A stretch of DNA of 32,000 nt from Candidatus Cloacimonadales bacterium (GCA_963678255.2 CAXXTW010000002.1:1119605-1151604), one strand, 5' to 3'; shown: positions 4,822-29,431, counted from the first letter of the stretch. A program made the numbers and translations. Notes: generated from the letters alone by a model not told the origin.

Positions 4822-5179
4822 ACAATACTCCTTTTTTTTGACCTTACTTTTTAAACGTTTTACAACGTTTGTATGTCAACACTATGATAAATTAGCAATA
4901 AATGTTCCACATTAGAAATTAGAGTTTTTTTTTTGCTTTTATAAAATTTAGTTCAATAATATTAGTTTAATTTTGCAAATACGAAAAAATAAAACTTCTA
5001 AAATGACGCTTGTAATGGGTGTTCTAATTTTTTCTATTCTTAACAAGAATAAATTTATATTAATAAACAAAAAAAACTTGCCAAAAAAAACACAGTTTCA
5101 CAAAATTAACATTCTCTTAACTGGATGCTTATCCAGAAATAATTTTAGAGATTATATTATAGATAAAAATGGAGGAAAA

Positions 5180-7789
5180 ATGAAAAAACTAATTACTTTA
5201 ACCTTTTTTATAATGTTGCTTTGCTCTTTTCTTTTTGCAGACAATATTATTCCAACCAGAACTGATGTTGCTGGATTTTCAACATGGACAGACACAAGTG
5301 TTGCAGGTACCACATATCTTCAGTTAGTTGTAGCTGGAGCTTCAACTATCACTCCAGCTATGGATTTTAATGGTTATACAGCAGAAACATTAAATTTCAA
5401 AGCTCGTACATATGCTGGAACGGACATAACTGAAACCACCATCTATATAGCAATATCTACAGATAATGGTTCAAACTGGACTGTTATAACAACTAGAGTT
5501 CCTGGAAGTTCTACATTAACAGCTATGGATTCAATTGATTTGAGCAGTTACAATGGTACACAAGTTAAGATAAAATTCTCTGTTGCTGGCACAAGTAACA
5601 CTATTGGAGCTGGTATTGATGATATTACTATTACAGGTACCCCTGCCCCAACTGGTCCTACAATTACTCTTACCCCTACTACTTTATCTGGGTTTACTTA
5701 TGTACAAGGAGCAGGACCATCAGAAGTACAAGCATTTGTTGTTAGTGGTTCAAGTTTAACAAATGATATCACTATAGATGCTCCAACTAATTACGAAATT
5801 TCTAAAACCAGTGGAAGTGGCTATACATCTCCATTAACATTTACAGAATCAAGTGGTACGGTTACTACACAAACTGTATATGTACGTCTTAAAGCAGGAT
5901 TAACTGCAGCAAGTTATAACAGTGAAGCTATTACAGCCACTTCAACTGGAGCTACTGATAAAACTGTGACTTGTAGTGGTACGATCTATAAACCAGAAGC
6001 ATCTAATCATGTAACTTCTTTTAATGCCTCTACAGGGTCTCCATCCTCATCGAGTATTAATTTTACATGGACTGCTCCTTCTGAAGGAATCTTCCCTGAT
6101 GGATATCTAATCCGTGGAAGCAATGTTTCTTATGCTGCGATCAGCAATCCTTCTGATGGAACACCTGTGTCAGATTCAGGATTAGATAAAAACATAACTT
6201 ATGGAACCAATAACTATACATTTTCTGGATTAACAGATAATACAACCTATTACTTCAAGATTTTCCCTTATACAAATACTTCAACGAATATTAATTACAA
6301 AACAGATGATCAAGTACCAAATGTTTTAAAAACAACAGATATCAGCCAATACCTTATTAACGAAGGCTTCAATGCTGGGACATCTGCTCCTTCAGGGTGG
6401 ATATTTACAAATATTGGAGGAACATATCCAACCTCAGGAAATTATGGAAATTCTTCTCCTTCAATTAAATTTGATAATAGTAATGATCGAGTTGAAACAA
6501 ATACTTTTACAAATCCTGGGAAACTAAGCTTTTGGCTAAAAGGTATGGGTGCAACTGGATCTTTAAAAATTGAAGCTTATTATAATTCAACATGGAATGA
6601 AGTAAATAATATTACATCATTACCAACAACAGGTACAGTATATGAATATTTATTAAACCATTCAGCCACACAAGTTAGGTTTACTTATACCAAATCTTCG
6701 AGTAATATTGCTTTAGATGATGTAACAGTTACTCGAGCATCTACTTATGAGTCAGGGTCTGCTTTTTCAGTCCCATCGATTACACCTACTGGAAATTTCC
6801 AAGTGATTGGAAGATTTAAAATTCATGCTTTTGAAACAGGTGCAACATTAAACTCAATAACTGTTAAATTAAATGGAACTGGTTTATCAGGAATAACTTC
6901 ACTTGATTTACACAAATCTTCTAACGATACATTTGAATATGATGAAAATAAAAAGCTTGCTTATGAGTCAGTTGATCTTAATACTCTTGCTAATATTGAT
7001 TTACAAGTTCAAGGTGGTGATATTATTAGTACAGGAGACACGTATTATTTTTTAACAATTAATACTCAAAATGCCACAGGGACAATTAAACCAGATTTAA
7101 TAGCGTTAAATGTAACAGACGGAAATGTTTCTGATTTTACTAATCCTTCTCCATTATCAGATTCTGATGCTCAAACTTTGCCAGTTGAACTTTCTTCTTT
7201 CACAGCTATTCCAAATGCTGTAAATCAGTCAGTAACCTTAAACTGGATTACCCAGTCAGAGACAGATTTAGTCGGTTATTATGTTTATAGAAGCAATGAT
7301 AATAGTTTAGAAACTGCGAACAGATATAGCAATATCATCACCGGCACCAATACTTCAACACAACAAAACTACACTTGGACAGACAGTAATGTTGAAGCTG
7401 GAGATTACTATTACTGGTTAATGTCAGTTGATCGTGATGGTTCTACAGATTTTTACGGTCCTGTTGCTGCAAAAGTTCTACCATCAAATCCTGAAATTCC
7501 GACAATTGGGATCAAAACTGCTTTCAATAGTATTTATCCGAACCCATTCAATCCTTCAACATCTTTAGCTTATAGCTTAGAAAATGCAGGCGATGTAAAA
7601 ATAACTATCTACAATATCAAAGGTGAAATTGTTAAAGTTATTTACCAAAACAATAAAGCTGCAGGCAACCACGCTGTTGTTTGGAATGGAACCGATTCTA
7701 ATTCAAAAACATGTGGAAGCGGAGTTTATTTCTTCAAATTGGAATCAGGAAAATATAATCTAACTAAAAAAGCTCTTTTAGTTAAATAA
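5180..7789 (+). CDS. Secreted surface protein with two MAM/choice-of-anchor-J-like beta-sandwich domains, an Fn3-like region and a T9SS/FlgD-Ig-type C-terminal sorting domain
   Basis: I place the start at ATG 5180 (GGAGG at 5171-5175; MKKLITLTFFIMLLCSFLFA signal peptide), not the TTG at 4973. Motifs IDDITITG and ALDDVTVT end the two beta-sandwich domains. C-terminus IYPNPFNPSTSLAY...SGVYFFKL...KALLVK. Confidence 0.7.
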   Translation: MKKLITLTFFIMLLCSFLFADNIIPTRTDVAGFSTWTDTSVAGTTYLQLVVAGASTITPAMDFNGYTAETLNFKARTYAGTDITETTIYIAISTDNGSNWTVITTRVPGSSTLTAMDSIDLSSYNGTQVKIKFSVAGTSNTIGAGIDDITITGTPAPTGPTITLTPTTLSGFTYVQGAGPSEVQAFVVSGSSLTNDITIDAPTNYEISKTSGSGYTSPLTFTESSGTVTTQTVYVRLKAGLTAASYNSEAITATSTGATDKTVTCSGTIYKPEASNHVTSFNASTGSPSSSSINFTWTAPSEGIFPDGYLIRGSNVSYAAISNPSDGTPVSDSGLDKNITYGTNNYTFSGLTDNTTYYFKIFPYTNTSTNINYKTDDQVPNVLKTTDISQYLINEGFNAGTSAPSGWIFTNIGGTYPTSGNYGNSSPSIKFDNSNDRVETNTFTNPGKLSFWLKGMGATGSLKIEAYYNSTWNEVNNITSLPTTGTVYEYLLNHSATQVRFTYTKSSSNIALDDVTVTRASTYESGSAFSVPSITPTGNFQVIGRFKIHAFETGATLNSITVKLNGTGLSGITSLDLHKSSNDTFEYDENKKLAYESVDLNTLANIDLQVQGGDIISTGDTYYFLTINTQNATGTIKPDLIALNVTDGNVSDFTNPSPLSDSDAQTLPVELSSFTAIPNAVNQSVTLNWITQSETDLVGYYVYRSNDNSLETANRYSNIITGTNTSTQQNYTWTDSNVEAGDYYYWLMSVDRDGSTDFYGPVAAKVLPSNPEIPTIGIKTAFNSIYPNPFNPSTSLAYSLENAGDVKITIYNIKGEIVKVIYQNNKAAGNHAVVWNGTDSNSKTCGSGVYFFKLESGKYNLTKKALLVK

Positions 7790-11243: not shown

Positions 11244-12209
11244 ATGACCGTATTAGAATTTATAAAAAATCAAATGGCATTAGAAGCAGAATCAATTATT
11301 AGTGCTTCTGAGCGATTAACTGATACAGTTGAAACAGGTGTAAACATCCTGTTTGAGTGTAAAGGGAAAGTTGTAACAACAGGTATGGGAAAGTCAGGGA
11401 TAATTGCCAGAAAGATATCTGCTAGTCTTGCCAGTACAGGAACAACCTCAATATATCTCCATCCAAGTGAAGGGATTCATGGTGATCTTGGTATGCTTCA
11501 AAGAGATGATGTGGTAATTGCTCTTTCTCAAAGCGGTAATACTCAAGAGATGGTATCTTTAATACCCTATATTAAATTTATTGAAGCCCCCTTAATCGTT
11601 ATCACAGGCAACTTGCAATCTGTTTTAGCCACCAATGCTTCTGTTGTACTTGATAGCTCAGTACAGGAGGGATATGAGCCCTTCAACCTTGTTCCCACGT
11701 GTAGCACCACAGTTCAATTGGCTATTGGTGATGCTCTAGCTGTGGCGTTACTTGAAAAAAGAAAATTTAAAATAAATGATTTTGCCTTATTTCATCCAGG
11801 TGGCACTATTGGGAAAAAATTATTACTAAAAGTTGGTGAATTGATGCATTGTGAGGAAAACAATCCCATAGTACAATATAATACACCCATGAGTCAAACA
11901 ATAATTGAAATGACCAGTAAAGGTTTGGGTTGTACAAACGTAATTGATAAAAATGGAATATTAATCGGGATTGTTACAGATGGAGACCTCAGACGATTTT
12001 TAAACCAAGGTTATACTGATTTGACTATCACAGCTGAAGAAGCCATGACCAAGGATCCAAAATGCATGAAAGCAGAAGATTTAGCAGTTGAAGCGCTAAA
12101 TTTAATGGAAAAATTTAAAATCACCATGTTACCAGTTGTAGATGATGAACATAAGCCTACTGGTTTATTACATATGCACGATTTAATAAAATCAGGAGTT
12201 GTTAGTTGA
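11244..12209 (+). CDS. kdsD: Arabinose-5-phosphate isomerase (KpsF/GutQ/KdsD family; SIS domain plus CBS pair)
   Basis: GKVVTTGMGKSGIIARKISASLASTGT SIS motif, then a tandem CBS region (VIDKNGILIGIVTDGDLRR...LPVVDDEHKPTGLLHMHDL). Confidence 0.85.
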   Translation: MTVLEFIKNQMALEAESIISASERLTDTVETGVNILFECKGKVVTTGMGKSGIIARKISASLASTGTTSIYLHPSEGIHGDLGMLQRDDVVIALSQSGNTQEMVSLIPYIKFIEAPLIVITGNLQSVLATNASVVLDSSVQEGYEPFNLVPTCSTTVQLAIGDALAVALLEKRKFKINDFALFHPGGTIGKKLLLKVGELMHCEENNPIVQYNTPMSQTIIEMTSKGLGCTNVIDKNGILIGIVTDGDLRRFLNQGYTDLTITAEEAMTKDPKCMKAEDLAVEALNLMEKFKITMLPVVDDEHKPTGLLHMHDLIKSGVVS

Positions 12210-12943
12210 AACTTAAAGATTTATTAATCAATGCCAACTCTTTTTGTAAAGGATTCATTCTTTTTTTAAGACCTGGAAGCTTTTTATCATTTTTAACAAA
12301 TCCATTGTTATTCCTTTCAAACTTAATTTGTCTGAGTAAATGGATTATTAAGCATAATCGAAGAGATATTCTTAATGATTTTTATATTCCTTTCAGAGAT
12401 TATGGGAAAAGATATAATTTATATGAAAATGTTTTAAAAAAAGAATTATTAAGAGAGACCCCTATTGATTATTTAGAATTCGGTGTTTTTCAGGGATCTT
12501 CTTTTCAATGGTGGATAAGTAACTGTAAAAATAGTAAATCCAGATTCTATGGTTTTGACACTTTTGAAGGGTTACCAGAAAAATGGGGTACTTTTGATAA
12601 GGGATCTATGGAAGCAAATTTTCCTCAAATTAATGATTCCAGACATTTATTTGTTAAAGGATTGTTTCAGGACACTCTTTTTCAATTTCTAAAAGATCAT
12701 GATATTTCCGAAAAGAGATTAGTCATCCATCTAGATGCAGATTTGTTTAGCTCAACTCTGTTTGTGTTGACAAGTTTAGCACCATATCTCAAAGATGGAG
12801 ATGTCATACTCTTTGATGAATTTAATGTACCTAATCATGAGTTCTATGCATTTAATACCTTTGTAAATACATTTTATATAAAATACGAACTGTTAGCTGC
12901 GGTAAACAACTTCTATCAAGTTGCTATAAAAATATCAAAATAA
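12206..12943 (+). CDS. Class I SAM-dependent methyltransferase, TylF/MycF-like
   Basis: EFGVFQGSSF (motif I), FYGFDTFEGLPE and HLDADLFSST...GDVILFDEF are typical of the TylF-type O-methyltransferase fold. TTG start with AGGAG 7 nt upstream, overlapping the kdsD stop (TTGA). Confidence 0.6.
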   Translation: MKLKDLLINANSFCKGFILFLRPGSFLSFLTNPLLFLSNLICLSKWIIKHNRRDILNDFYIPFRDYGKRYNLYENVLKKELLRETPIDYLEFGVFQGSSFQWWISNCKNSKSRFYGFDTFEGLPEKWGTFDKGSMEANFPQINDSRHLFVKGLFQDTLFQFLKDHDISEKRLVIHLDADLFSSTLFVLTSLAPYLKDGDVILFDEFNVPNHEFYAFNTFVNTFYIKYELLAAVNNFYQVAIKISK

Positions 12944-12953
12944 GGAAGTTAAA

Positions 12954-13985
12954 ATGGATTTAATCAAATTTGGACTAATCGGTTGTGGCAGAATATCAGA
13001 AAGACACTTCGATGCAATCGATCAAATACCTGATGCTGAGATTATTACCTGTTGCGATATAATTGAAGAAAGAGCGAGAAATGCTGCACAAAAATATAAG
13101 TTAAAAAACTATTATACTGACTATATTCAGATGCTTGACACAGAAAAAATTGATGCAGTTTTAATATGTGGGCCTAGCGGTTTACATCCCCAAATGGGAA
13201 TAAATGCAGCTAATAGAGGGATTCATGTAATCTCTGAAAAACCTATGGGGATCAATCTTTCTCAAGCTGATGAATTAATTAAAGCTTGCGATATCAATAA
13301 GGTTCAGTTATTTGTTGTAAAACAAAACAGACTAAACCCTCCGATTCAATTATTAAAAAAATCTATTGAAAAAGGAAGATTTGGTAGAATATTCAGTGTA
13401 AATGCGACGGTTAGATGGACTCGACCTCAAAGTTATTATGATATGGCTAAATGGCGTGGTACTTGGGAGTTTGATGGTGGAGCTTATCTAAATCAAGCTT
13501 CACATTATTTCGATCTTCTTCATTGGTTAATTGGACCAGTAGAATCTGTAATGTCCTTTACTGCAACTTTAAATCATCAACTAGAAGTAGAAGATATGGG
13601 TATGGGAATTATCAAATTTAGAAATGGAGCTCTCGGTTCAATAGAAGTAACCATGAATACTTTTCCACGTAATCTGGAAGGATCAATTACTGTTATGGGA
13701 GAATTTGGAACGGTAAAAATTGGTGGCATTGCCGTAAATAAAATTGAGCATTGGGAATTTAAAGACTATGATGATGATGATAGATTGGTTACAGATTCGC
13801 AAACCGTTCCTTCCAATGTGTATGGATTCGGTCATATCGGATTTTTATCAAATGTAGTAGAAGTATTACAAGGCAAAGCAGAGCCAAAAACAGATGGCAG
13901 AGACGGCAGGAAATCATTAGAATTGATCTTGGCTATGTATGAATCTGCAAGGTCAGGGAAAAAGGTTGCTTTACCATTAAAGTAA
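12954..13985 (+). CDS. Gfo/Idh/MocA-family NAD(P)-dependent oxidoreductase (sugar dehydrogenase-like)
   Basis: N-terminal Rossmann motif KFGLIGCGRISERH and the EKP motif (VISEKPMG), at the typical ~340 aa length. Confidence 0.8.
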   Translation: MDLIKFGLIGCGRISERHFDAIDQIPDAEIITCCDIIEERARNAAQKYKLKNYYTDYIQMLDTEKIDAVLICGPSGLHPQMGINAANRGIHVISEKPMGINLSQADELIKACDINKVQLFVVKQNRLNPPIQLLKKSIEKGRFGRIFSVNATVRWTRPQSYYDMAKWRGTWEFDGGAYLNQASHYFDLLHWLIGPVESVMSFTATLNHQLEVEDMGMGIIKFRNGALGSIEVTMNTFPRNLEGSITVMGEFGTVKIGGIAVNKIEHWEFKDYDDDDRLVTDSQTVPSNVYGFGHIGFLSNVVEVLQGKAEPKTDGRDGRKSLELILAMYESARSGKKVALPLK

Positions 13986-14054: not shown

Positions 14055-14945
14055 ATGATCATACAAAAGTATTTTGAAGATAGAACTGAGATATTAAACC
14101 GTTGCATGGATGAATATTTAGTGGCAGCTGAAGAACACCCAAATGTTCTTTATGAAGCTATCCGTTATTCAATTTTCAATGGTGGTAAAAGACTCCGTCC
14201 AATTCTTTTAATGTCCACTTTTGAAATGTTAAATAAAACTGAGACTTATGAACAACTAAAACCAGCTTTGCCTGCAGCTGCTGCTATCGAAATGATTCAT
14301 ACAGCTTCATTAATTCATGATGATCTTCCATCTATGGATGATTCAGATGAACGCAGAGGACAACAAAGCTTACATAAAAAATATACTCCGGCTATTGCTA
14401 TCTTAGCAGGTGATGCTTTACTTACTAAAGCTTTTGAAGTTCTTGCCAAGATAGAAGATAAAGAAAAAGCTGTGAAATGTATTAGTATCATATGTCAGGC
14501 AGTTTCGACAAGAGGAATGATCGGAGGTCAGACAGTTGATGTAATTTCCTCTGATAAAAATAGTATCCAAATAAATGTTTTAAAATATATTCATTCCAAA
14601 AAAACAGGAGCATTATTGGAAGCTTCTGTAAAACTGGCTTGTGCTATGGCAGGTGCAGATGAAAATGTGACAAACACTCTTTCAACCTATGCGATGAACC
14701 TTGGTCTAGCGTATCAGATTATAGATGATATCCTGGATGATGTTGGGGATTTTGAAATGTTGGGTAAAGAACCTTATGAAGATGCACGCAACAATAAATC
14801 CACTTATCCTTCCATAATGGGACTTGATAAGGCAAGACGTTCTGCGGAAAAACTATTAGATGACTCCTATAAACTAATCAAGAACTTCCCCAAAAATCAG
14901 ATATTGGTTGAATTTGTTCGAATGATTAAGGATAGATTACCATAA
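14055..14945 (+). CDS. Polyprenyl diphosphate synthase (short-chain trans-IPPS; GGPP/FPP synthase type)
   Basis: First DDxxD motif region LIHDDLPSMDDSDERRG, second motif QIIDDILD, and GKRLRP. AGGAG RBS. Confidence 0.9.
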   Translation: MIIQKYFEDRTEILNRCMDEYLVAAEEHPNVLYEAIRYSIFNGGKRLRPILLMSTFEMLNKTETYEQLKPALPAAAAIEMIHTASLIHDDLPSMDDSDERRGQQSLHKKYTPAIAILAGDALLTKAFEVLAKIEDKEKAVKCISIICQAVSTRGMIGGQTVDVISSDKNSIQINVLKYIHSKKTGALLEASVKLACAMAGADENVTNTLSTYAMNLGLAYQIIDDILDDVGDFEMLGKEPYEDARNNKSTYPSIMGLDKARRSAEKLLDDSYKLIKNFPKNQILVEFVRMIKDRLP

Positions 14946-14962
14946 ATAAAGGAAATTCTCGA

Positions 14963-15835
14963 ATGAATATTAAATCCTATTTAAACATTACCCGACCGGG
15001 TAATTGTTTTTTTTCAATGCTTTGTGTTATATTTGGTGGATTATATTATCGTAGTTCCTACATAAACATTTATTTAGTTTTTGCCGTTATATCAGCTGCT
15101 TTAATAGCAGCTGGAGGTTATATCATCAATGATGTATATGATTTGGAAATCGATAGAATAAACAAACCCGACAGAGTATTACCATCAGGAAAAATCAATA
15201 TTAAGAATGCAGTCAGATATTATTTTATTATTACTGTCATTGGACTCATTCTTTCTGTTTTTACAAACAATCTCTGGAATATTTTATTAGCTGGTGTGAA
15301 TAGCATATTGTTATTGCTCTATGCAAAAAAATACAAGAAAACACTGATATTTGGAAATTTATTAGTGGCCTATATGGCTTCTTCAACTTTCCTATTTGGT
15401 GCATTGGTAACTAAAAATGTATTTACTGTTTTACCTTTAGTTTATTTTTCTTTCTTTTATACCCTTCTTAGAGAATGGGTCAAAACAATTGAAGATGAAG
15501 TTGGAGATCGTGAGAATAAAGCTAATACGATGGCAGTTGTCTTTACTTCTGCAAAAACAGCTCGATTATCTTACTTCCCGACATTAATGATAATCTTAGG
15601 TGTTTATGCTTTTTATCTTTTAGATTTTTTTAATTCAATAGTTTTCTTTAGTTTAAACTTTCTAGTATCTGTTCCTCTGGTATTTGGAATGGTTATCCTA
15701 AATAAAAGCCAACATCCAAAAGTTATTAGAAAAATTCATTTTTATATGAAAATAGATATGTTGATCCTACTAATGATCTTTCTTGTACAATATGTTGCAA
15801 TTCACATTTATTATCTATTTTTAATGAGGGCTTAA
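14963..15835 (+). CDS. UbiA-family prenyltransferase, digeranylgeranylglyceryl-phosphate (DGGGP) synthase-like
   Basis: Polytopic membrane protein. Motif 1 is NDVYDLEIDRINKPDRVLPSG and motif 2 is IEDEVGDRENKANTMAV. Both resemble the archaeal DGGGPS pattern (D-x-E-I-D-x-I-N-x-P-x-R-x-L/I-P-S-G; D-x-x-G-D-x-x-x-G-x-x-T). It lies between GGPPS and GGGPS. Confidence 0.7.
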   Translation: MNIKSYLNITRPGNCFFSMLCVIFGGLYYRSSYINIYLVFAVISAALIAAGGYIINDVYDLEIDRINKPDRVLPSGKINIKNAVRYYFIITVIGLILSVFTNNLWNILLAGVNSILLLLYAKKYKKTLIFGNLLVAYMASSTFLFGALVTKNVFTVLPLVYFSFFYTLLREWVKTIEDEVGDRENKANTMAVVFTSAKTARLSYFPTLMIILGVYAFYLLDFFNSIVFFSLNFLVSVPLVFGMVILNKSQHPKVIRKIHFYMKIDMLILLMIFLVQYVAIHIYYLFLMRA

Positions 15836-16611
15836 TGAAAAAAGAAATATATCTGAAACTCTTGAAAAAAAGAGAAAAACATCCTTGTCTATTCTGTCTT
15901 TTAGATCCGGATAAGCATGAGATTTCTGAGGCAGTAGATTTAGCAAAACATTATGAAGATAATCAGGCTGATGCTCTTTTAATCGGCGGGAGTTTGATGA
16001 TTAACAATCATTTTGAACAAAGTATCAAAGAGATTAAAAAGGTTCTTTCAATACCTGTCATAATTTTCCCTGGTATTTTTAACTTTGTTAGTTCTTATGC
16101 GGATGCAATTTTACTTTTAAATATGATCAGCAGCCGTAATCCTCAGTTATTAATAGAAGAACAAGTTCGCTCTGCCCCATTAATTTACCAAGCAAATCTT
16201 GAATCAATACCAACAGCATATTTATTAATTGAATCGGGTTGCTTGTCTTCAGTTCAATTTATGAGTCACAGCCTTCCCATTCCATCGAAAAAAAATGACA
16301 TAGCAATAGTTCATGCACTTGCAGGTCAATATCTAGGGATGAAGATGATCTATTTGGAAGCTGGGAGTGGAGCAACAAAGCCTGTCCCTAATGAAATGAT
16401 AAAAGCTATTTATGATAAAATTGAAATTCCTATTATTGTCGGAGGAGGCATAAAGGATCCAGAAACTGCTGTTAATAAAGTAAATGCTGGAGCTGATTTT
16501 ATTGTGGTAGGGACAGCCTTGGAAGAAAGCAAAAAAAGTAATTTAGTGAATGAAATTGCTAATGCAATTAATCAAATACATAAACCATCTAAACCCTTTA
16601 AGGATTTGTAA
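15835..16611 (+). CDS. Geranylgeranylglyceryl phosphate synthase (GGGPS/PcrB family TIM barrel)
   Basis: Family hallmarks: LLDPDK, ADALLIGGS, IIFPG, LNMISSRNPQLLIEEQ, YLLIESG, MIYLEAGSGA, IIVGGGIKDPETA and GADFIVVGTALEE. The ATG overlaps the upstream TAA by 1 nt. Confidence 0.85.
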   Translation: MKKEIYLKLLKKREKHPCLFCLLDPDKHEISEAVDLAKHYEDNQADALLIGGSLMINNHFEQSIKEIKKVLSIPVIIFPGIFNFVSSYADAILLLNMISSRNPQLLIEEQVRSAPLIYQANLESIPTAYLLIESGCLSSVQFMSHSLPIPSKKNDIAIVHALAGQYLGMKMIYLEAGSGATKPVPNEMIKAIYDKIEIPIIVGGGIKDPETAVNKVNAGADFIVVGTALEESKKSNLVNEIANAINQIHKPSKPFKDL

Positions 16612-17402
16612 TGATTGATATCCATAACCACATATTACCTGCATTAGATGACGGGTCTCCTGATATTGAAACAACTGAAGAATATTTTAAGTTGATCAAA
16701 GAAGCAGGGATTAGTCATATAGTTTTTACACCTCATTATATGCCTGGTTTTTATGATAATACTCGTGATAGATTGGATAAAGCATACAATAGTATTTTAC
16801 CAATAAAAAAAGAGATTATTCCTAACGTAAACACCTATTATTCAACAGAAGTATATCTTAATGGAGAATTTATAGTCAATGATATTATCAAAGAAAATCT
16901 CTTTATTAATAATTCAAAATATGTATTGGTGGAAAACAACTTAAATGGTTTTACCGAAGATTTGTATCATCTGCTATATCAATTAGTAAGAAAAGGATAT
17001 AAACCAATTTTAGCACATCCTGAAAGATATCAAGAAATTAGAACAGATATATCAAAAGCTGAAGATTTTATGATTCGCGATGTGTATCTGCAAATAAACA
17101 CCAGCAGTCTTCTGGGAGGCTATGGCGAGAAAGTACAGCAAACGGCTTTTGAACTAATAGACAGAGGATGGGCACATTTTTTAGGATCAGATTGTCATTG
17201 CCATTCTGGAGTTTATGACTATCCAGAATCTGTAGAATTGATAAGAAAAGAATTTGACGATAATATTGCAACATATCTCAGTAAAACCTTTCCTCAAAAA
17301 ATGCTGAATAATGAACATGTGCCAATATTCTATATGGTTAGAAAAGAGATTCCCCAAAAAAAATCATTTTTTGACAAATTATTCAATCTTTTTGGAGACT
17401 AA
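16611..17402 (+). CDS. PHP-domain metal-dependent phosphatase (CpsB/YwqE-type protein-tyrosine phosphatase family)
   Basis: MIDIHNHILPALDDGS, FTPHY, LAHPERY and GSDCHC are metal-ligand motifs of the CpsB/PHP family. The start overlaps the GGGPS stop by 1 nt. Confidence 0.8.
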   Translation: MIDIHNHILPALDDGSPDIETTEEYFKLIKEAGISHIVFTPHYMPGFYDNTRDRLDKAYNSILPIKKEIIPNVNTYYSTEVYLNGEFIVNDIIKENLFINNSKYVLVENNLNGFTEDLYHLLYQLVRKGYKPILAHPERYQEIRTDISKAEDFMIRDVYLQINTSSLLGGYGEKVQQTAFELIDRGWAHFLGSDCHCHSGVYDYPESVELIRKEFDDNIATYLSKTFPQKMLNNEHVPIFYMVRKEIPQKKSFFDKLFNLFGD

Positions 17403-18377
17403 ATGAAAACGATTTTACTCACAGGCATCACGGGATTTATAGGTAAAAATGTTGCAAAACGTTTATATCAAAATTATCAAATAACAGCAATTGTCAGACC
17501 ATCAACAGCAGTTAACAGATTAAGTTTTTTTGAAAATAAAGTTAAGTTTGTAGAAATTGATTTAACTGATATAAAGACATTGAAGACATTTCTTGATAAA
17601 AATAAATTTGATTATATTGTTCATATTGGTGCTCTCAGAGGTGGAAGGAAATTTTCAAAAGAAGATTATCATAAAGCGAATGTGTTTTCTACAGAACAAC
17701 TTGTATTGAATGCCATGAAAAATGACAGTAAACTTCTTTTCTGCTCTTCGGTTGGAGTCTTTGGAGCAATACCCCTTGAATTACCTGCGAATAACTTATC
17801 CCCTAGACAAGAAGATAATTATTACCACAAAACAAAAATCATCTCAGAAGCTATTATTCAAAAGTATGTACTTTCAGGCAAATTAAATGCATACATACTT
17901 CGACCAGCTATAGTATATGGTTCTGGAGATTTTGGTTTTCCCTATACATTGATAAAGCTTATTGAGAAAAAGTTACTTGTTTTTCCAAATAAACCATTTA
18001 GAATACATATGACACATATTGAATTGATCACAGATGCTTTTGTAAAAGCGTTGGAATCAGAATGCATTTCAGGAAAACAATGGATTATTGCTGATGAAGT
18101 ACCTGTTCTATTTAGTAATCTGGTAGATTTTATTTCTAACAAAATCCATCATAAAGACTATCCAAGAAATAGGAGAATTGAGCCTTTCTGGTTTGAATTG
18201 GGAATAAAAGTATCAAGATTTTTTAAAAATGAATTATGGGTAAGCCGATTTGAATTAATTTCAAAAAACTGGTTTTATGATGTAAAAGAAGCAAATGAAG
18301 ACTTGCATTTAAAGCATTTTACGACAATACCCTCTTTTAAAACTGTTATCGATTGGTATAAAATAGAAAAGAATTAA
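17403..18377 (+). CDS. NAD-dependent epimerase/dehydratase (extended SDR)
   Basis: LLTGITGFIGKNV Rossmann motif and YxxxK catalytic motif (YHKTK). The start directly abuts the upstream stop. Confidence 0.8.
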   Translation: MKTILLTGITGFIGKNVAKRLYQNYQITAIVRPSTAVNRLSFFENKVKFVEIDLTDIKTLKTFLDKNKFDYIVHIGALRGGRKFSKEDYHKANVFSTEQLVLNAMKNDSKLLFCSSVGVFGAIPLELPANNLSPRQEDNYYHKTKIISEAIIQKYVLSGKLNAYILRPAIVYGSGDFGFPYTLIKLIEKKLLVFPNKPFRIHMTHIELITDAFVKALESECISGKQWIIADEVPVLFSNLVDFISNKIHHKDYPRNRRIEPFWFELGIKVSRFFKNELWVSRFELISKNWFYDVKEANEDLHLKHFTTIPSFKTVIDWYKIEKN

Positions 18378-18389
18378 TAGGAGTTATGT

Positions 18390-19229
18390 ATGGCTATTCC
18401 CATTTTAAACTTTTGGGAAAACTATTTCTCTAATCCTGATGAAGGTCTAGGTTCAACATATGAACGTTTTATAATAAATAAAGTACTCCTAAAAGTTCTT
18501 AAACATTATCGAGTTAAAAGTGTATTAGAGAGCCCTTCTTTTGGATTTACGGGACTTTCTGGAATTAATAGTGTCATTTTAGCAAAGAATAATTGTGAAG
18601 TTTTCTTAATGGATCATAATCAAAAAAGACTGGATTTAATAGAATCTGTATGGAAAAAACTTAACCTTGAACTTAAAACAATTTATACTAAAGACTATCA
18701 AAAAATCCCCTTACCTGATCAATCAATTGACTTAAGCTGGAATTTTTCTGCTCTATGGTTTGTAACTGATTTGGAGAACTTTTTAAATGAACTGAGCAGG
18801 GTGACTAGAAAGATTATTTTGATCATGGTACCTAATCAGACAGGTATAGGTTATCTTCATCAGAAATATACAGGCAAAAAAGATCTTCAAAAATACTTAA
18901 AAGAAGAGAATATAAACACTTCTACTATTAAGAATTACATGAAGAAAATCAATTGGAGTCTTTTAGATCATCAATTTATTGATTGCCCACCTTGGCCTGA
19001 TATAGGGATGAGTAAAGAAAATTTCCTTAAAAAGCTAAAACTTGACTTTTTAGCAAACAGTTTTGAAGGGAAAAAAGAATCTGTCTCAATTTTAGATTAT
19101 TATAATGACTCTCAACCAGAAATGATTAGCAGGTTTTTAAAGCTTGAGTGGTTGGAAAAATCTGCACCCAATGCATTTAAAAAGATCTGGTCTCATCATC
19201 AATATATGATTTTTTATAAAAAACAGTAG
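18390..19229 (+). CDS. Hypothetical protein, methyltransferase-fold-like
   Basis: VLESPSFGFTGLSG (degenerate motif I), an acidic residue after beta2 (FLMDHN) and DLSWNFSALWFV resemble a class I MTase fold. GGAG RBS. Function not established. Confidence 0.4.
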   Translation: MAIPILNFWENYFSNPDEGLGSTYERFIINKVLLKVLKHYRVKSVLESPSFGFTGLSGINSVILAKNNCEVFLMDHNQKRLDLIESVWKKLNLELKTIYTKDYQKIPLPDQSIDLSWNFSALWFVTDLENFLNELSRVTRKIILIMVPNQTGIGYLHQKYTGKKDLQKYLKEENINTSTIKNYMKKINWSLLDHQFIDCPPWPDIGMSKENFLKKLKLDFLANSFEGKKESVSILDYYNDSQPEMISRFLKLEWLEKSAPNAFKKIWSHHQYMIFYKKQ

Positions 19230-19231
19230 CA

Positions 19232-20233
19232 ATGAAGAAACATTATAAAAACATTCTATTTAGTGTATTGATCGGGACTATATTTTTATATCTGTGGAGT
19301 AAAATTATAGATGACAAAGCGTTTTTAAGTTACTTTAGCAACATTAGTATATCTATGGTTACTACTTCACTTATATTCTATTTTATGGGTTATGGGTTCC
19401 GAAGTTTTAGGTGGAAAATATTACTCTCAACAACCTATAATATCCCTTTTAAAACAATCTTTTCTTATGTTATGGCAGGGAATCTGATTAATTATCTTGT
19501 TCCCATTCGAGCTGGAGAAGTAGGTAAATGTGTCTTTTTAAAAAAGAATTATCAGATAGGATTTTCAAAATCATTTCCTTCAATTTTTATAGACAAACTT
19601 TTTGATACATTTGGTATCTTTATCATTTTAGCGATCTTACCCTTTATAAATATAGAAATTAATAAATATCTCGAAACATTGATCATTCTATTATTGGCAA
19701 CATTCATTCTTGGAGCTTTGATATTGGTTATGGCATCTTTTATGGAAGAAAAGGTCATCAAGTTTTTACAGAATTTATTTTATTTTTTTCCAAAGAAATA
19801 TAAAGAAAAGATTCATGACTTTATTGAGTTATTTGTTCAGGGTACAGGGATATTTAAAAATCATATAAACTTATTACCAATTAGCATTTTTCTTACCCTG
19901 ATAGCAATTTTAGCAGATAGTTTGTTTTTTTGGTTTATGTTTAAAGCTTTTTCACAGGACGTAAACTTTATCTATGTTGCTTTTGGATATACACTGATCA
20001 ATTTAAGTTTTATATTTCCACAACCCCCAGCTCAACTAGGGAGTAATGAATTAATAATGATTCTAATTTTTACTATTGGAATGGGTTTACAAAAGAATAT
20101 GGTTAGTGCTGTAACAGCCTTTTCACATATAATCACAGGCATTTTAATAGTAGTTATTGGGATGATCTGTTTGAGTTTTGCTGGTACTAAATTTTTTGAA
20201 ATAATAAAAAACGGAGACGATAATGACAAATAA
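19232..20233 (+). CDS. Polytopic membrane protein, LPG-synthase-TM / flippase-like (UPF0104) family
   Basis: About 8 hydrophobic segments. The FRSFRWKILL motif after TM2 is typical of the lysylphosphatidylglycerol-synthase transmembrane-region family. Confidence 0.6.
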   Translation: MKKHYKNILFSVLIGTIFLYLWSKIIDDKAFLSYFSNISISMVTTSLIFYFMGYGFRSFRWKILLSTTYNIPFKTIFSYVMAGNLINYLVPIRAGEVGKCVFLKKNYQIGFSKSFPSIFIDKLFDTFGIFIILAILPFINIEINKYLETLIILLLATFILGALILVMASFMEEKVIKFLQNLFYFFPKKYKEKIHDFIELFVQGTGIFKNHINLLPISIFLTLIAILADSLFFWFMFKAFSQDVNFIYVAFGYTLINLSFIFPQPPAQLGSNELIMILIFTIGMGLQKNMVSAVTAFSHIITGILIVVIGMICLSFAGTKFFEIIKNGDDNDK

Positions 20234-21221
20234 AGAACTAACTCAGGTTGCTTTACTTGAGCAGGTAAAAGATATTCGTAAAGATCTTTTAAATGAACTA
20301 CATAAAATAATAATTGGACAAGACAAAGTCATTGATCAAATCTTAATCGGATTATTTTCAAACGGTCATTGTTTAGTAGAGGGTGTTCCAGGTTTAGCAA
20401 AAACATTAATGATCTCAACTCTGTCCAAAATCTTCCAGTTAAAATATTCGAGAATTCAATTTACACCTGATTTAATGCCTTCAGATATAACAGGCACAGA
20501 GATCTTAGCTGAGAATAAGAGTGACGGGAATCGATATTTCCAATTTATCAAAGGACCAATCTTTGCTAACATAATTTTGGCAGATGAGATAAACCGTACT
20601 CCCCCAAAAACTCAGGCAGCATTACTTCAAGCCATGCAAGAGTTTCAAGTAACAACAGGGAATTCAACCTATCAGCTGGATTCACCTTTTTTAGTATTAG
20701 CAACCCAAAATCCGATAGAGCAGGAAGGAACCTATCCCCTACCAGAAGCTCAATTAGATAGATTTATGTTAAATATTATCATGGATTATCCATCATATGA
20801 AGAAGAAAAAGCGATAGTAAATTTAACAACAACTCATAAACAAGAAGAACCTAAACAAATAATTAGCAAAGAAATGATATTAAAGATACAGGAAGCACTT
20901 TATTCTGTTCCTGTGAGTGACCATATTTTAAATTCTGCCGTAAAATTAGTTAGAGCTACCAGACCAAAATCAAAGGAAGCTCCAGATTTTATAAATCGTT
21001 GGGTTACATGGGGTGCAGGTCCGAGGGCTTCGCAATATTTGATAATTGCTGCTAAAGCGAAAGCAATTCTGGAAGGACGATTGACACCATCAATAGAAGA
21101 TTTAGTACAAGTCTCGGAGATTGTACTCAGACATCGTGTGTTGATTTCTTATGCAGCAGAAGCAGAAGGATATCGGTCACCACAAATAATAGAAAAGTTA
21201 GTGAATGAGATTATTAAATAA
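20223..21221 (+). CDS. MoxR-family AAA+ ATPase
   Basis: IIGQDKVIDQILIGLFSNGHCLVEGVPGLAKT (Walker A), ILADEINR (Walker B), ATQNPIEQEGTYPLPEAQLDRF and GAGPRA. Overlaps the upstream gene by 11 nt. Confidence 0.9.
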   Translation: MTNKELTQVALLEQVKDIRKDLLNELHKIIIGQDKVIDQILIGLFSNGHCLVEGVPGLAKTLMISTLSKIFQLKYSRIQFTPDLMPSDITGTEILAENKSDGNRYFQFIKGPIFANIILADEINRTPPKTQAALLQAMQEFQVTTGNSTYQLDSPFLVLATQNPIEQEGTYPLPEAQLDRFMLNIIMDYPSYEEEKAIVNLTTTHKQEEPKQIISKEMILKIQEALYSVPVSDHILNSAVKLVRATRPKSKEAPDFINRWVTWGAGPRASQYLIIAAKAKAILEGRLTPSIEDLVQVSEIVLRHRVLISYAAEAEGYRSPQIIEKLVNEIIK

Positions 21222-21248
21222 AAAAAAGCCGCTAGAAGCGGCTTTTTA
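21222..21248. terminator. Bidirectional rho-independent terminator between convergent operons
   Basis: AAAAAAAGCCGC-taga-GCGGCTTTTT: a GC stem flanked by an A-run and a T-run. It lies between the moxR-like stop (21221) and the rubredoxin stop (21262). Confidence 0.85.
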
Positions 21249-21261: not shown

Positions 21262-21402
21262 TTAGTCCATTGGACTAAACATATCTTTACCTACACCACA
21301 AGCAGGACAAGTCCAATCTTCTGGCAAATCTTCAAAAGATATATTGTCATTTTCTACTGGATCATAGACCCAACCGCAAGCATCACATACGAATTTTTTC
21401 AT
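21262..21402 (-). CDS. Rubredoxin (46 aa; not in the ORF track)
   Basis: Reverse-strand translation is [46 protein letters not shown], with two CxxCG knuckles. GGAG RBS 7 nt upstream, 13 nt downstream of rubrerythrin. Confidence 0.9.
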
Positions 21403-21415: not shown

Positions 21416-22009
21416 TTAATAATTTTCTACGAATACTTCAAAATATGATTTTGGATGTAAACAAGCAGGGCATTTTTCAGGTGCTTCAATATTTTCAGTG
21501 ATATATCCACAATTAATACATTTCCAAAATACTTTCCCGTCTTTTTTAAAGACTTTATGTTCTTCAACATTTTTTGCTAATTTACTGTATCTAGCTTCAT
21601 GTTTTTCTTCAACTTTCGCAATTAACCTGAAAGCTAAAGCGACGTCTTTAAAGCCTTCCTCTTCAGCTGTATTAGCAAAGGCAGGGTAAAGTTCTGTCCA
21701 TTCTTCTTTCTCTCCATTAGCGGCATAAGAAAGGTTTTTAAAGGTGTCTTCTGACAAAGCTACAGGGTAGCCAGCGTCATTCAAAATAATAACTTCTTCA
21801 TTCATTCCATGTTCAAGAAGTTTTTTATAAAAAATTTTAGCATGTTCTTTTTCATTATCAGCTGTTTCTAAAAAGATCTCAGAAATCTGTAAGAATCCTT
21901 GTTTTTTAGCAACGCTGGCATAATATGTATAACGCATTCTGGCTTGAGATTCACCAGCAAATGCTTTCATTAAATTTAAAGCAGTTTTACTATTTTTAAA
22001 ATCAGGCAT
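21416..22009 (-). CDS. rbr: Rubrerythrin
   Basis: Ferritin-like di-iron domain ([11 protein letters not shown]..., [16 protein letters not shown]) plus a C-terminal rubredoxin-like domain (WKCINCGY...CPACLHP). Confidence 0.92.
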
Positions 22010-22021: not shown

Positions 22022-22405
22022 TTAACTGATTTTCCACACCATGTGTATGTTACAAAATTCTCTAATTTCGATAACATCAGCTCTTCTAACAGGGAATTCT
22101 GCTCGAGGCTTCATTCCAGGTTTTAACTCTTTGCGGATAACCATATCCTCTGTAACAACTTCAATAAAAACAATATGATGTTCTTCAAGCATTGGATGAT
22201 CTACAGATCCAATATTAACAATAATGCTAGTATCGGTTTCTTCAACAATAACTGGTATGTGTTTATCAGTTGTTGCTTCTGTAGTATTAGGGACTATTAG
22301 TAACATTGGGTCTTCACAACAAACTAAAGCTTCTGCACCAGTAGATACAATTTCAACCATATTTTTGCAATGTGTGCAATAATATAAAGATCTTAACTCA
22401 GTCAT
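22022..22405 (-). CDS. dfx: Desulfoferrodoxin (2Fe superoxide reductase)
   Basis: N-terminal desulforedoxin-like centre I (YYCTHCKNMVEI...LVCCEDPM). SOR centre II ligands (KHIPVI, HPMLEEHHI, CNIHMVW). Confidence 0.9.
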   Translation of the reverse strand: MTELRSLYYCTHCKNMVEIVSTGAEALVCCEDPMLLIVPNTTEATTDKHIPVIVEETDTSIIVNIGSVDHPMLEEHHIVFIEVVTEDMVIRKELKPGMKPRAEFPVRRADVIEIREFCNIHMVWKIS

Positions 22406-24269: not shown

Positions 24270-24280
24270 CTAATTTTTAA

Positions 24281-24308
24281 GCGAATCGAAAGATTCGCGT
24301 TTTTTTTT
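24281..24308 (+). terminator. Rho-independent terminator after tRNA-His (last core feature before the island)
   Basis: GCGAATC-gaaa-GATTCGC followed by GTTTTTTTTT. Confidence 0.8.
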
Positions 24309-24322
24309 GCTTATATTTCAAA

Positions 24323-24372
24323 TGTAATGTGACAGGTAAAACTGCAAAAAGTGACAGGTGTAATGTGACAGG
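24323..24372 (+). repeat. Cluster of TGTAATGTGACAGG / GTGACAGG direct motifs
   Basis: TGTAATGTGACAGG occurs at 24323-24336 and 24359-24372, and GTGACAGG at 24351-24358. The same 12-mer is inverted at 24476-24487 and 29365-29376. Confidence 0.85.
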
Positions 24373-24504
24373 CTAAATTGCAATTTATCTTTTCAAAGTG
24401 GAATACCGATCTAACTATCTATTTATTTGTAAGTTATGCAGACTGTAAAACCGTTTTTTCATTTGCAGTTTGAGGTGTCACATTACAATTGATCAAAATT
24501 GCAT

Positions 24505-24534
24505 TTGCAATGATCAGGATTCTAAATTTAAATT
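24505..24534 (+). promoter_or_regulatory. Putative promoter of the leader RNA, copy 1
   Basis: TTGCAA (24505-24510), 18-nt spacer, TAAATT (24529-24534). The segment is conserved in copy 2 (29396-29425, -10 TAAATA). It lies just downstream of the inverted 12-mer. Confidence 0.35.
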
Positions 24535-24540
24535 GAAAAA

Positions 24541-24793
24541 AACCATTGTTTGTAAACTGGTATCAAATCACTCGTTGCGTAAACTTCCAGTTAGCACATT
24601 CCTGCAAGCTGGCAGCTCGCTGAACGAGTTTCTTTCTCACCATAGGGGCTGGACGAGAAAGAGACAAGAATTTCGAGTCCGAGCCGAACTCGCTTCAAAA
24701 GGGCTTAACACCTCGAATTTAAATTTTATAATATCATTAGCATTTTGAATTCATTACACCTCAAAAATCGGAGAAGATTTGAGGCAATTTTTT
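24541..24793 (+). ncRNA. Candidate structured RNA or cis-leader, copy 1 (5' end approximate)
   Basis: Hand-found stems: 24542-47/24556-61, 24570-76/24623-29, 24584-90/24609-15, perfect 8 bp 24631-38/24655-62, and long-range 24672-77/24712-17. An intrinsic terminator CCTCAAA-12 nt-TTTGAGG plus T6 lies at 24759-24793. G+C is about 50% by hand count over 24569-24715, in an AT-rich context. Confidence 0.55.
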
Positions 24794-24953
24794 CTTTATT
24801 AGTAATAATATATTGCTAGATGTGTCAAGAAGACATCGATATAAAGAAAAATGGTTTTCTTTTCTTGGCAATGAAGAGAAGAGTGGTTAAAGGGAAGCTT
24901 ATCTATTTTGGACAGTCTCTAACAATGTGGCAATTCATGTGTGTAACTTTATA

Positions 24954-24981
24954 TTGACATTTTTTTTATTTTTTATATAAA
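24954..24981 (+). promoter_or_regulatory. Putative promoter of the HTH-S24 repressor gene
   Basis: TTGACA (24954-24959), 16-nt spacer, TATAAA (24976-24981), about 45 nt upstream of the start. This segment is absent from module 2. Confidence 0.45.
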
Positions 24982-25025
24982 TTGTTTTAAGTGTTCACAG
25001 AATTGAATGAGTTAAAGGAGATATA

Positions 25026-25655
25026 TTGGTCTCATATATGGAAACTTTTAGATTTAATAAAGCACTACTAGCTCGGGATATAAATGTGACGCAAGGGAAT
25101 ATCTCTGATTGGGTTAATGATAAAAAACCAAGTAAACCCTCTGTTATGGCTCTTGCTAAGATCAGAGAGGTCTATAATGTGAATATTAACTGGTTATTAA
25201 CCGGAGAAGGTGTAATGTTCTCTCCAGATTCAGATGGCCGCTTTTATAACCTAGGTGAATCTAATAAAGAAGAACTGGAAGAGATAAGTGGAAACAAAGC
25301 GGTTTATCAATATAAGAGCTCAAGTCTTGAATCCAGAACAATCGCTCTTCCTCTTTTAGGATTAATATCGGCTGATACTCCTCTTGAAATTGTTAATCCG
25401 GATTCCTGGAAATATATAAAAATCCCGAAAGCCTTCTTATGGGATAAGTATGACAATTGCTTCGTATTCAAGGTTAATGGTCAATCAATGGAGCCTACCA
25501 TCTTTCATGGTGACATCGTGGTAATCCATAAAAGAGATGACTGGTTCAATCTTACAGGAAAAGTCATTACGATCAGAACTTCCGATGGCATCACTTTAAC
25601 GAAAGTTCAATACGATGAAAACGCAGACAAATTTTTCTCATGCCCTTTAATATAA
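25026..25655 (+). CDS. XRE-type HTH plus S24 (LexA/CI-like) peptidase repressor; 3' end apparently frameshifted
   Basis: HTH region ARDINVTQGNISDWVNDKK...NINWLLTGEG. S24 catalytic Ser in VNGQSMEP and Lys in GITLTKV. AGGAG lies 5 nt before TTG 25026 (alternative ATG at 25038). The last ~28 homologous codons continue in the +1 frame at 25657-25743. Confidence 0.75.
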   Translation: MVSYMETFRFNKALLARDINVTQGNISDWVNDKKPSKPSVMALAKIREVYNVNINWLLTGEGVMFSPDSDGRFYNLGESNKEELEEISGNKAVYQYKSSSLESRTIALPLLGLISADTPLEIVNPDSWKYIKIPKAFLWDKYDNCFVFKVNGQSMEPTIFHGDIVVIHKRDDWFNLTGKVITIRTSDGITLTKVQYDENADKFFSCPLI

Positions 25656-25656
25656 T

Positions 25657-25743: not shown

Positions 25744-25753
25744 GAGATAATTA

Positions 25754-29425: not shown

Positions 29426-29431
29426 GAAAAA

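Follow-up and report, generated by a model that had tools for sequence, protein, structure and literature searches.

Gene Content of the Predicted Ether-Lipid Locus

The window analysed here, a stretch of 32,000 nt from Candidatus Cloacimonadales bacterium (GCA_963678255.2 CAXXTW010000002.1:1119605-1151604), carries three adjacent open reading frames (ORFs) on the + strand, whose products are predicted to build the ether-linked isoprenoid lipid core known from archaea. The first gene (14055-14945, 296 aa) encodes a short-chain trans-isoprenyl diphosphate synthase (IPPS; PF00348, E 1.9e-61), the second (14963-15835, 290 aa) encodes an integral membrane prenyltransferase of the UbiA superfamily that resembles digeranylgeranylglyceryl phosphate synthase (DGGGPS; PF01040, E 1.8e-32), and the third (15835-16611, 258 aa) encodes a putative group II geranylgeranylglyceryl phosphate synthase (GGGPS; PF01884 PcrB, E 1.6e-43). 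The IPPS and UbiA genes are separated by a 17-nt spacer with an AAGGA Shine-Dalgarno-like motif, and the UbiA and GGGPS genes meet at TAATG, in which one base is common to the stop and start codons. Both the coordinates and the TAATG junction agree with the original prediction for this DNA, which had described an adjacent trio with 17-nt and 1-nt-overlap junctions.

The GGGPS protein scored above the curated cut-offs of TIGR01769 'GGGP' (219.9 vs 161.6 bits) and NF003198 (288.6 vs 247 bits). Its closest solved structure is the enzyme of Flavobacterium johnsoniae (4JEJ, 1e-52), a bacterial group IIb member from the FCB group, followed by the group II enzyme of Methanothermobacter thermautotrophicus (4MM1, 3e-44), and 6JO3 was matched as well (4e-36). 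In contrast, the HepGPS/PcrB structures of Bacillus (3VZX, 1VIZ), which represent a group I, C35-specific enzyme from a pathway without a second ether bond, reached only about 2e-5, and the group I enzyme of Archaeoglobus was matched at the level of about 1e-5 (2F6U, 8e-5), which argues against a long-chain PcrB type. The conserved residues Y129, Y173-L-E175-AGSGA and GGGI, which comprise the Tyr/Tyr/Glu set and the phosphate loops, are all present. According to the definitions of a previous study (PMC9385802), VGT227 carries the group II signature Thr in the beta-alpha-8 loop, and Val85, which aligns with V86 of the M. thermautotrophicus and I90 of the F. johnsoniae enzyme, occupies the proposed C20 chain-length limiter in helix alpha-3'. 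The protein is predicted to be a group II GGGPS, as found in Methanobacteria, TACK archaea and Thermoplasmata, and to form the first ether bond.

The five best NCBIfam matches of the UbiA-type protein (E 1e-50 to 4e-24) comprised four geranylgeranylglycerol-phosphate geranylgeranyltransferase models and one related archaeal prenyltransferase model, whereas the models for ChlG (3e-17), haem O synthase (CyoE, 2e-10) and UbiA (1e-7) scored far lower. The only strong relative of solved structure was the DGGGPS of Methanocaldococcus jannaschii (MjDGGGPS, 6M31; 3e-39 over residues 3-277), and the next one, a chlorophyll synthase, was matched at 4e-5. Thus the protein sides with archaeal DGGGPS and not with the quinone, haem O or chlorophyll prenyltransferases, in line with its first description. 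Compared with the motif residues of MjDGGGPS (N62/D66/D70, Y125/K130 and D180/D183/D187), N56/D60/D64 of motif 1, Y120/K125 of motif 2 and D178/D182 of motif 3 are in place, but the counterpart of D180 is Thr175. The UbiA protein is annotated here as DGGGPS-like and is predicted to form the second ether bond.

The IPPS possesses a first aspartate-rich motif (FARM) that reads DDLPSMD, with a two-residue insertion, and a second one (SARM) that reads IIDDILDD. Previous work showed that type-II geranylgeranyl diphosphate synthases (GGPPS) have Ser, Ala or Met, all small, at the -4/-5 sites ahead of the FARM, where farnesyl diphosphate synthases (FPPS) have an aromatic residue, while the archaeal type-I synthase has an aromatic residue at -5 (PMC9385802). 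The window IPPS has Ala-Ser at -5/-4; the same site holds Tyr-Ser in the clostridial 'geranyltranstransferase' 3UCA, which is of FPPS type, and Met-Ser in the cyanobacterial GGPPS 7MXZ. It had been proposed that the chain length could be read from the residues upstream of the first DDxxD, and these residues do follow the type-II GGPPS pattern. By this pattern the IPPS is predicted to be type-II GGPPS-like and to supply geranylgeranyl diphosphate.

Relation to Known Systems

Co-localised GGGPS and DGGGPS genes were previously reported in metagenome-assembled genomes (MAGs) of Ca. Cloacimonetes (Villanueva et al., ISME J 2021, PMC7852524). In that study, the purified GGGPS of NIOZ-UU3 formed geranylgeranylglyceryl phosphate (GGGP) in vitro, Escherichia coli expressing the NIOZ-UU3 GGGPS and DGGGPS made phosphatidylglycerol (PG)-archaeol using host enzymes, and transcription of both genes and of the neighbouring polyprenyl synthase was detected by RT-PCR (PMC7852524). 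The same authors described the host as bacterial, with a fatty-acid pathway, found that EgsA/AraM (glycerol-1-phosphate dehydrogenase, G1PDH) and CarS are absent and geranylgeranyl reductase (GGR) is present in related Cloacimonetes MAGs, and experimentally tested and rejected chimerism for NIOZ-UU3 (PMC7852524).

The NIOZ-UU3 scaffold, which is locus L029 of our sample, encodes PriA, IPPS, UbiA, GGGPS and a PHP-family protein, and the NIOZ-UU1 to UU4 cluster, from the same phylum, shares with the window the order polyprenyl synthase, DGGGPS, GGGPS and PHP (order read in L029). The NIOZ-UU3 proteins are 51% (IPPS), 44% (UbiA, over 203 aa, E 1e-52, likewise encoded between IPPS and GGGPS) and 59% (GGGPS) identical to those of the window, and G1PDH and CarS were found in neither. 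NIOZ-UU3 is a different species, with PriA upstream of the cluster in place of the threonyl-tRNA synthetase (ThrRS), KdsD-like isomerase, methyltransferase and GFO oxidoreductase of the window. As the positional orthologue of the cluster in NIOZ-UU3, the window trio is a further example of a system that has been published and in part verified. The original prediction had called the finding not unprecedented, which is correct in that homologues were known but understates the case, as the same type of cluster in the same phylum has been published with biochemistry. An archaeal-type ether-lipid cluster in Cloacimonadota is therefore already known, and what is added here is the operon context and a hypothesis on a phosphatase; the supplementary text file of the earlier paper (PMC7852524) does not contain the word 'phosphatase'.

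The active NIOZ-UU3 GGGPS (L029, 8574-9332) has F-F-D where the window protein and the archaeal enzymes have the conserved Y-L-E that includes the proposed catalytic Glu. Therefore, either Tyr and Glu are not strictly required or Asp replaces Glu.

With the archaeal core pathway (GGPPS, GGGPS and DGGGPS; 4MM1, 6M31), the window shares the same three enzyme families, and their catalytic motifs are conserved apart from Thr175 of UbiA. Unlike the archaeal pathway with its type-I synthase and aromatic -5 residue, the window has an IPPS of the bacterial/plastid type II, as seen from the FARM insertion and the small -5/-4 residues; moreover, EgsA, CarS and GGR genes are not nearby and the host is bacterial. 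In contrast to the window, FCB bacteria other than Cloacimonetes do not have GGGPS and DGGGPS co-localised (PMC7852524). Bacteria possessing both archaeal ether-bond enzymes bear on the 'lipid divide' and on the natural stability of mixed membranes; this point was made in 2020/21 with the same type of cluster in this phylum, to which the window adds one more genome.

Transcription Unit and Genomic Setting

Downstream of the trio, five further + strand genes follow in close succession. The first, which overlaps the GGGPS gene at 16611 by another TAATG, encodes a CpsB/YwqE-type PHP metal-dependent phosphoesterase (16611-17402; PF19567, E 4e-49). The next gene starts at the base right after the PHP stop codon and encodes an extended short-chain dehydrogenase/reductase (SDR) of the NAD-dependent epimerase/dehydratase family (17403-18377; PF01370, E 3e-28), with a weak full-length match to HpnA. 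It is followed by genes for a class I SAM-dependent methyltransferase (18390-19229; PF08241, PF13649), a flippase-like membrane protein of the LPG_synthase_TM/TIGR00374 type (19232-20233; PF03706, E 4e-39; TIGR00374 98 bits vs a cut-off of 43) and a MoxR-type AAA+ ATPase (20223-21221; PF07726, E 1e-62; PF20030), the last of which overlaps the flippase-like gene by 11 nt and is the final gene of the packed unit. The gaps after the PHP gene, up to 21221, are 0, 12, 2 and -11 nt in order. At 21223-21247, a perfect 11-bp GC-rich hairpin between A and T runs, AAAAAGCCGCTAGAAGCGGCTTTTT, was found by terminator scan and in the sequence, and it is a predicted bidirectional intrinsic terminator that closes both the lipid unit and the convergent rubredoxin/rubrerythrin genes. 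The tightly packed transcription unit thus probably consists of eight genes, from IPPS to MoxR (14055-21221); a co-transcribed trio had been proposed, and while the trio is intact and coupled, those bounds were too narrow.

The unit contains one terminator-like + strand match (14987-15004), which falls in the coding region of UbiA and was taken as chance. The sigma-70 promoter scan of the window was uninformative (56 sites vs 62.9 expected), and Rfam detected only four tRNAs in the window, with no riboswitch or leader before the operon. Upstream, the gene for a GFO/IDH/MocA NAD(P)-dependent oxidoreductase (12954-13985, +; PF01408, PF02894, PF22725) ends 69 nt before the IPPS gene and, being loosely associated, was left outside the core unit. 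It belongs to a group of overlapping or closely spaced genes (11244-13985) for a KpsF/GutQ-family arabinose-5-phosphate isomerase, a TylF-like methyltransferase and the GFO/IDH/MocA oxidoreductase. The upstream context of ThrRS and the KdsD-like isomerase is common only to the nearest clade of the window (L005, L006, L012 and L085).

The surroundings of the unit are bacterial, as first described, and include proteins with Por_Secre_tail domains of the type IX secretion system (T9SS), ThrRS, the KpsF/GutQ-family isomerase and tRNA-Met genes. The isomerase, which had been named KdsD, reached 301 bits on TIGR00393 (cut-off 204), and the first of the two tRNA-Met genes has the 1:72 mismatch and GGG/CCC anticodon stem of the bacterial initiator tRNA that had been noted.

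Conservation of the Cluster in Cloacimonadota

Gene order was compared across 80 GGGPS-anchored genome loci, almost all labelled Cloacimonadota, with counts taken over the assessable loci. The best GGGPS homologues were likewise almost all labelled Cloacimonadota and bacterial, the nearest species representative sharing 70% GGGPS identity, and the host is a Cloacimonadota bacterium. The PHP gene occupies its canonical position after GGGPS in 76/77 loci, followed in frequency by UbiA (70/76), IPPS (66/72), SDR (62/72), the methyltransferase (50/64), the flippase-like gene (39/57) and MoxR (37/56), and 38/66 loci have the GFO oxidoreductase in the corresponding upstream place. It is therefore the PHP phosphatase gene, and not DGGGPS, that accompanies GGGPS most faithfully.

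In six loci, some of them from genomes of 3.7-3.9 Mb, IPPS and UbiA are absent upstream, while GGGPS, PHP, SDR and the methyltransferase are retained (as is MoxR in five of the six); an IS200-type transposase lies beside GGGPS in one of them. The reverse situation was found in a PHP-anchored sample of loci, where 'short' clusters (L081/L082, L091, L092 and L094) consist of IPPS followed by PHP, SDR, mostly the methyltransferase, the flippase-like gene and MoxR, and lack UbiA and GGGPS at the locus. These 'short' clusters occupy at least two places within the Cloacimonadota PHP clade of a neighbour-joining tree. UbiA and GGGPS thus form a module of two genes that a conserved, isoprenoid-linked operon may contain or lack, which we regard as a useful addition to the published picture. 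Ala-Ser at -5/-4 of the IPPS is invariant in 71 orthologues, including those from clusters without UbiA and GGGPS, so the idea that the -5 residue tracks the presence of GGGPS/UbiA was rejected.

The gene order of the 'short' clusters resembles a pathway that leads from a prenyl diphosphate through dephosphorylation and redox to methylation. In the window and in L001, moreover, UbiA diverges to an unusual degree compared with its neighbouring genes. Two loci with the full Cloacimonadota-type cluster (L014 and L021), whose GGGPS are 60-61% identical to that of the window, were deposited as 'Armatimonadota bacterium' MAGs, a label that is probably due to mis-binning or mislabelling.

The PHP Phosphatase and Its Pairing with GGGPS

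The PHP protein matches the solved phosphatases YwqE (3QY6, 2e-52) and CpsB (2WJD, 7e-45) over its full length and shares all their metal ligands, namely the invariant H5, H7, H42, E80, H136, D194 and H196. It differs from the CpsB/YwqE systems in that no tyrosine kinase/modulator (BY-kinase; CpsC/CpsD, YwqC/YwqD) or capsule domains were detected in the window or the inspected neighbourhoods, the gene being coupled to GGGPS or IPPS instead, and in its conserved C-terminal tail. This tail of about 25 residues is basic/aromatic, e.g., KKSFFDKLFNLF, and is weakly compatible with an action at the membrane surface. About half of the sampled unrelated CpsB homologues lack such a tail and some have a similar one, and the tail was therefore discarded as an exclusive mark of GGGPS-linked proteins.

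Outside Cloacimonadota, a metagenomic locus of 62% GC (L114) has a GGGPS gene that overlaps a PHP gene in the order AlaRS, GGGPS, PHP, SIS isomerase, BatA and HflX, with no IPPS or UbiA near the pair. Five more members of this 62%-GC lineage, found via GGGPS homologues, carry the same pair, giving six of six loci of shared context. That the pair recurs where both gene context and base composition differ is our main argument that GGGPS and PHP work together. According to previous studies, the heptaprenylglyceryl phosphate (HepGP) product of Bacillus is dephosphorylated before acetylation by a phosphatase termed non-specific (PMC12345273), and a dephosphorylation branch from digeranylgeranylglyceryl phosphate (DGGGP) that leads to dephospho-acetyl-archaeol was proposed in haloarchaea (PMC9179154). 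The PcrB/YvoF/LhaT pathway of Bacillus, in which the product of a PcrB-family prenyl-glyceryl phosphate maker is dephosphorylated, offers a functional analogy for the proposed PHP step; it differs from the window in having an acetyltransferase, which is absent from the window operon, and a 'non-specific' phosphatase where the window has a translationally coupled phosphatase gene. We tentatively suggest, as a possibility that falls short of an even chance, that GGGPS and a CpsB-like PHP form a conserved functional module in at least two unrelated lineages, in which PHP would serve as a dedicated (D)GGGP phosphatase.

Three findings speak against this role of PHP. A seventh GGGPS homologue (L168, 7001-8515) lies within a chemotaxis gene cluster, next to a DUF2064 gene and not to PHP. 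In the neighbour-joining tree, the PHPs of Cloacimonadota and those of the 62%-GC lineage formed separate clades with no resolved sister relation, so that a common ancestry of the GGGPS-PHP pair is not supported, and the view of GGGPS-linked PHPs as one subfamily was abandoned. Furthermore, PHP, SDR, the methyltransferase, the flippase-like gene and MoxR persist right behind IPPS at loci lacking both UbiA and GGGPS, so their role is not strictly dependent on the UbiA-GGGPS module. Alternatively, PHP might supply the glycerol-phosphate substrate, which we consider less likely than a (D)GGGP phosphatase. The GFO/IDH/MocA oxidoreductase or the SDR was also considered as a substitute for the glycerol-1-phosphate dehydrogenase and rejected, given that the former occurs in only 38/66 loci and both genes are absent in the 62%-GC lineage.

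If PHP acts on (D)GGGP, it would carry out the counterpart of a step that lacks an assigned enzyme in two pathways, that to heptaprenylglycerol (HepG) in Bacillus and the proposed one to acetyl-archaeol in haloarchaea. The native products would then be dephosphorylated and tailored isoprenoid glycerol ethers, with help from the SDR, methyltransferase and flippase-like protein, rather than archaetidyl phospholipids, and the lipid to be sought as evidence of a 'mixed membrane' would change. The effect of the phosphatase thus bears on which lipid Cloacimonadota really make.

The six loci of the 62%-GC lineage (L114, L164-L167 and L169) share a conserved order of RecA, RecX, AlaRS, GGGPS, PHP, SIS isomerase, BatA and HflX, and two of them have PgsA-type and PgpA genes a few kb upstream. 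In this lineage the GGGPS-PHP pair is linked with BatA, and in Cloacimonadota with MoxR, both of which are components of Bat/MoxR-type systems.

Proposed Function and Alternative Explanations

We consider it likely that the trio represents the archaeal ether-lipid core in its Cloacimonadota form, passed on by vertical descent, and that it is orthologous to the genes tested by Villanueva et al. The ether-lipid interpretation given first to this locus is favoured by the family tests of UbiA and GGGPS and by the positional orthology of the trio with the tested NIOZ-UU3 genes. In the proposed mechanism, IPPS would elongate isopentenyl diphosphate and dimethylallyl diphosphate from the methylerythritol phosphate (MEP) pathway to geranylgeranyl diphosphate, from which the soluble group II GGGPS would transfer the geranylgeranyl chain to glycerol phosphate to form GGGP, as was shown for its 59%-identical NIOZ-UU3 orthologue. 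The membrane-embedded DGGGPS-like UbiA would subsequently add the second chain to give DGGGP, as the NIOZ-UU3 orthologue was shown to do in E. coli. Two routes may lead on from DGGGP: host enzymes of the CdsA/PgsA type would convert it to archaetidyl phospholipids, as in the published model, or the coupled PHP phosphatase would strip the phosphate of GGGP/DGGGP at the cytoplasmic face of the membrane, leaving a neutral ether lipid for tailoring. Both routes could coexist, and we think that dephosphorylation by PHP may take at least part of the flux. The mixed-membrane capacity of the host is, on the strength of its genes, a potential one.

Several observations weigh against the ether-lipid interpretation. 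The UbiA protein stayed below the cut-offs of all five NCBIfam DGGGPS/prenyltransferase models (best NF009521, 172.6 vs 296 bits), which are built on archaeal clades, and it is encoded by the fastest-evolving gene of the cluster, being 38-46% identical to any relative when IPPS and GGGPS reach 65-79% identity with their closest relatives. In motif 3, Thr175 (window 15485-15487) stands at the equivalent of MjDGGGPS D180, and the D180A mutant of archaeal DGGGPS was reported to lose most of its activity (PMC9385802). This position is Thr, Cys or Val in the clade of the window (loci L001-L006, L012 and L084) but Asp in 61/66 Cloacimonadota UbiA orthologues and in NIOZ-UU3; because the change is conserved within the clade, it does not look like decay. 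The Pfam scan, run on every window ORF of 100 aa or more (22 in total), revealed no G1PDH-type (Fe-ADH/DHQS-like), CarS or geranylgeranyl-reductase domain among them, so the absence of G1PDH and CarS was correctly predicted, and a complete archaeal phospholipid pathway (EgsA/AraM, CarS and geranylgeranyl reductase) does not lie within the window. In the literature cited here, no Cloacimonadota cell has been identified as the source of an isoprenoid glycerol ether. As for IPPS, the NCBIfam FPPsyn subfamily model was the only one whose cut-off was passed (302 bits vs 275), the CrtE GGPPS model NF045685 remaining below its own (278 bits vs 460), and IPPS is kept with Ala-Ser in relatives without UbiA and GGGPS at the locus, and may therefore be a general-purpose enzyme.

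In the published 'mixed membrane' model, DGGGP is activated to its CDP form by CdsA and receives PG- or phosphatidylethanolamine-type heads, so that bulk archaetidyl phospholipids are made and the downstream genes are unrelated inherited neighbours. The PG-archaeol formed by host enzymes in E. coli with NIOZ-UU3 GGGPS and DGGGPS (PMC7852524) agrees with this, as do the genes from PHP to MoxR, which are kept without UbiA and GGGPS at the locus and thus have a role independent of the ether-lipid enzymes. However, this model does not account for the start/stop overlap of GGGPS and PHP or for their being neighbours in 76/77 Cloacimonadota loci, inheritance alone poorly explains why the pair turns up again in a lineage of unrelated base composition and gene context, and the literature cited assigns no native archaetidyl phospholipid to Cloacimonadota, which leaves it, in our view, somewhat doubtful as the whole explanation.

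To a similarly doubtful degree, the products might be low-abundance specialised or carrier lipids instead of structural ones, after the model of Bacillus, in which the PcrB product is dephosphorylated and acetylated and serves as an acyl shuttle (PcrB/YvoF/LhaT pathway, PMC12345273). The proposed haloarchaeal dephospho-acetyl-archaeol branch (PMC9179154), the phosphatase, methyltransferase and flippase-like protein encoded in the same operon, and the fact that the UbiA-GGGPS module is dispensable in some Cloacimonadota are in accordance with such lipids. Nevertheless, Pfam detected no YvoF-type acetyltransferase or LhaT-like gene in the operon, DGGGPS gives a two-chain, bilayer-forming lipid whereas the Bacillus product is single-chain, and sequence says nothing on abundance.

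It is also conceivable, though unlikely, that the IPPS is a housekeeping short-chain synthase that provides farnesyl diphosphate (FPP) for undecaprenyl diphosphate and quinones, its adjacency being historical. Besides the FPPsyn score and the identical place and chain-length region in clusters without UbiA and GGGPS, this would fit the Black Sea MAGs with only two polyprenyl synthases (PMC7852524). On the other hand, Ala at -5 belongs to the type-II GGPPS pattern where FPPS has Tyr (PMC9385802), and a housekeeping role and the supply of geranylgeranyl diphosphate are compatible, since FPP is an intermediate. The GGPPS label of the original prediction hence stands by residue pattern, with the subfamily cut-off pointing to FPP synthase.

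That the UbiA homologue prenylates another acceptor (quinone, haem, chlorophyll-type or other), leaving only a mono-ether, appears very improbable: its scores under all DGGGPS equivalog cut-offs, its fast evolution and the lost motif-3 Asp would suit this, but the DGGGPS models and 6M31 are ahead of all other UbiA families by over 20 orders of magnitude, the protein is the positional orthologue of the NIOZ-UU3 enzyme needed for PG-archaeol, and UbiA adjoins GGGPS in 70 of 76 loci. Finally, an assembly chimera or a recent archaeal transfer is effectively refuted, as the trio has the same GC content as its flanks (0.30-0.35), which by itself makes recent transfer unlikely, about 70 independent assemblies of Cloacimonadota show the same gene order, the nearest homologues are bacterial, and chimerism was rejected experimentally for NIOZ-UU3 (PMC7852524).

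Other Features of the Window

Convergent with the lipid operon and sharing its hairpin terminator, a rubredoxin-like ORF of about 46 aa (21262-21402, - strand), which falls under the length threshold of the ORF list, adjoins genes for rubrerythrin (21416-22009) and desulfoferrodoxin (22022-22405), and together they form an oxidative-stress cluster.

Just downstream of a tRNA cluster (Met, Met, Arg-TCT and His), the region 24270-32000 has a very low GC content (0.23 at 26-29 kb vs 0.30-0.35 elsewhere). It carries an S24-peptidase/HTH repressor-like ORF (25026-25655), an ORF of 1108 aa (25754-29080) without a Pfam or PADLOC match, a 236-aa ORF also without a match, and a 302-aa ORF (30864-31772) with a weak match to HNH/PtuB-like nucleases. 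Judging from this content, the region resembles an integrated island or a candidate defence locus.

At the other end of the window, two very large T9SS-sorted surface proteins are encoded at 694-4821 (- strand) and 4973-7789 (+ strand), and one of the two (1375 aa) possesses a C10 (streptopain-like) peptidase domain together with a Spi inhibitor prodomain.

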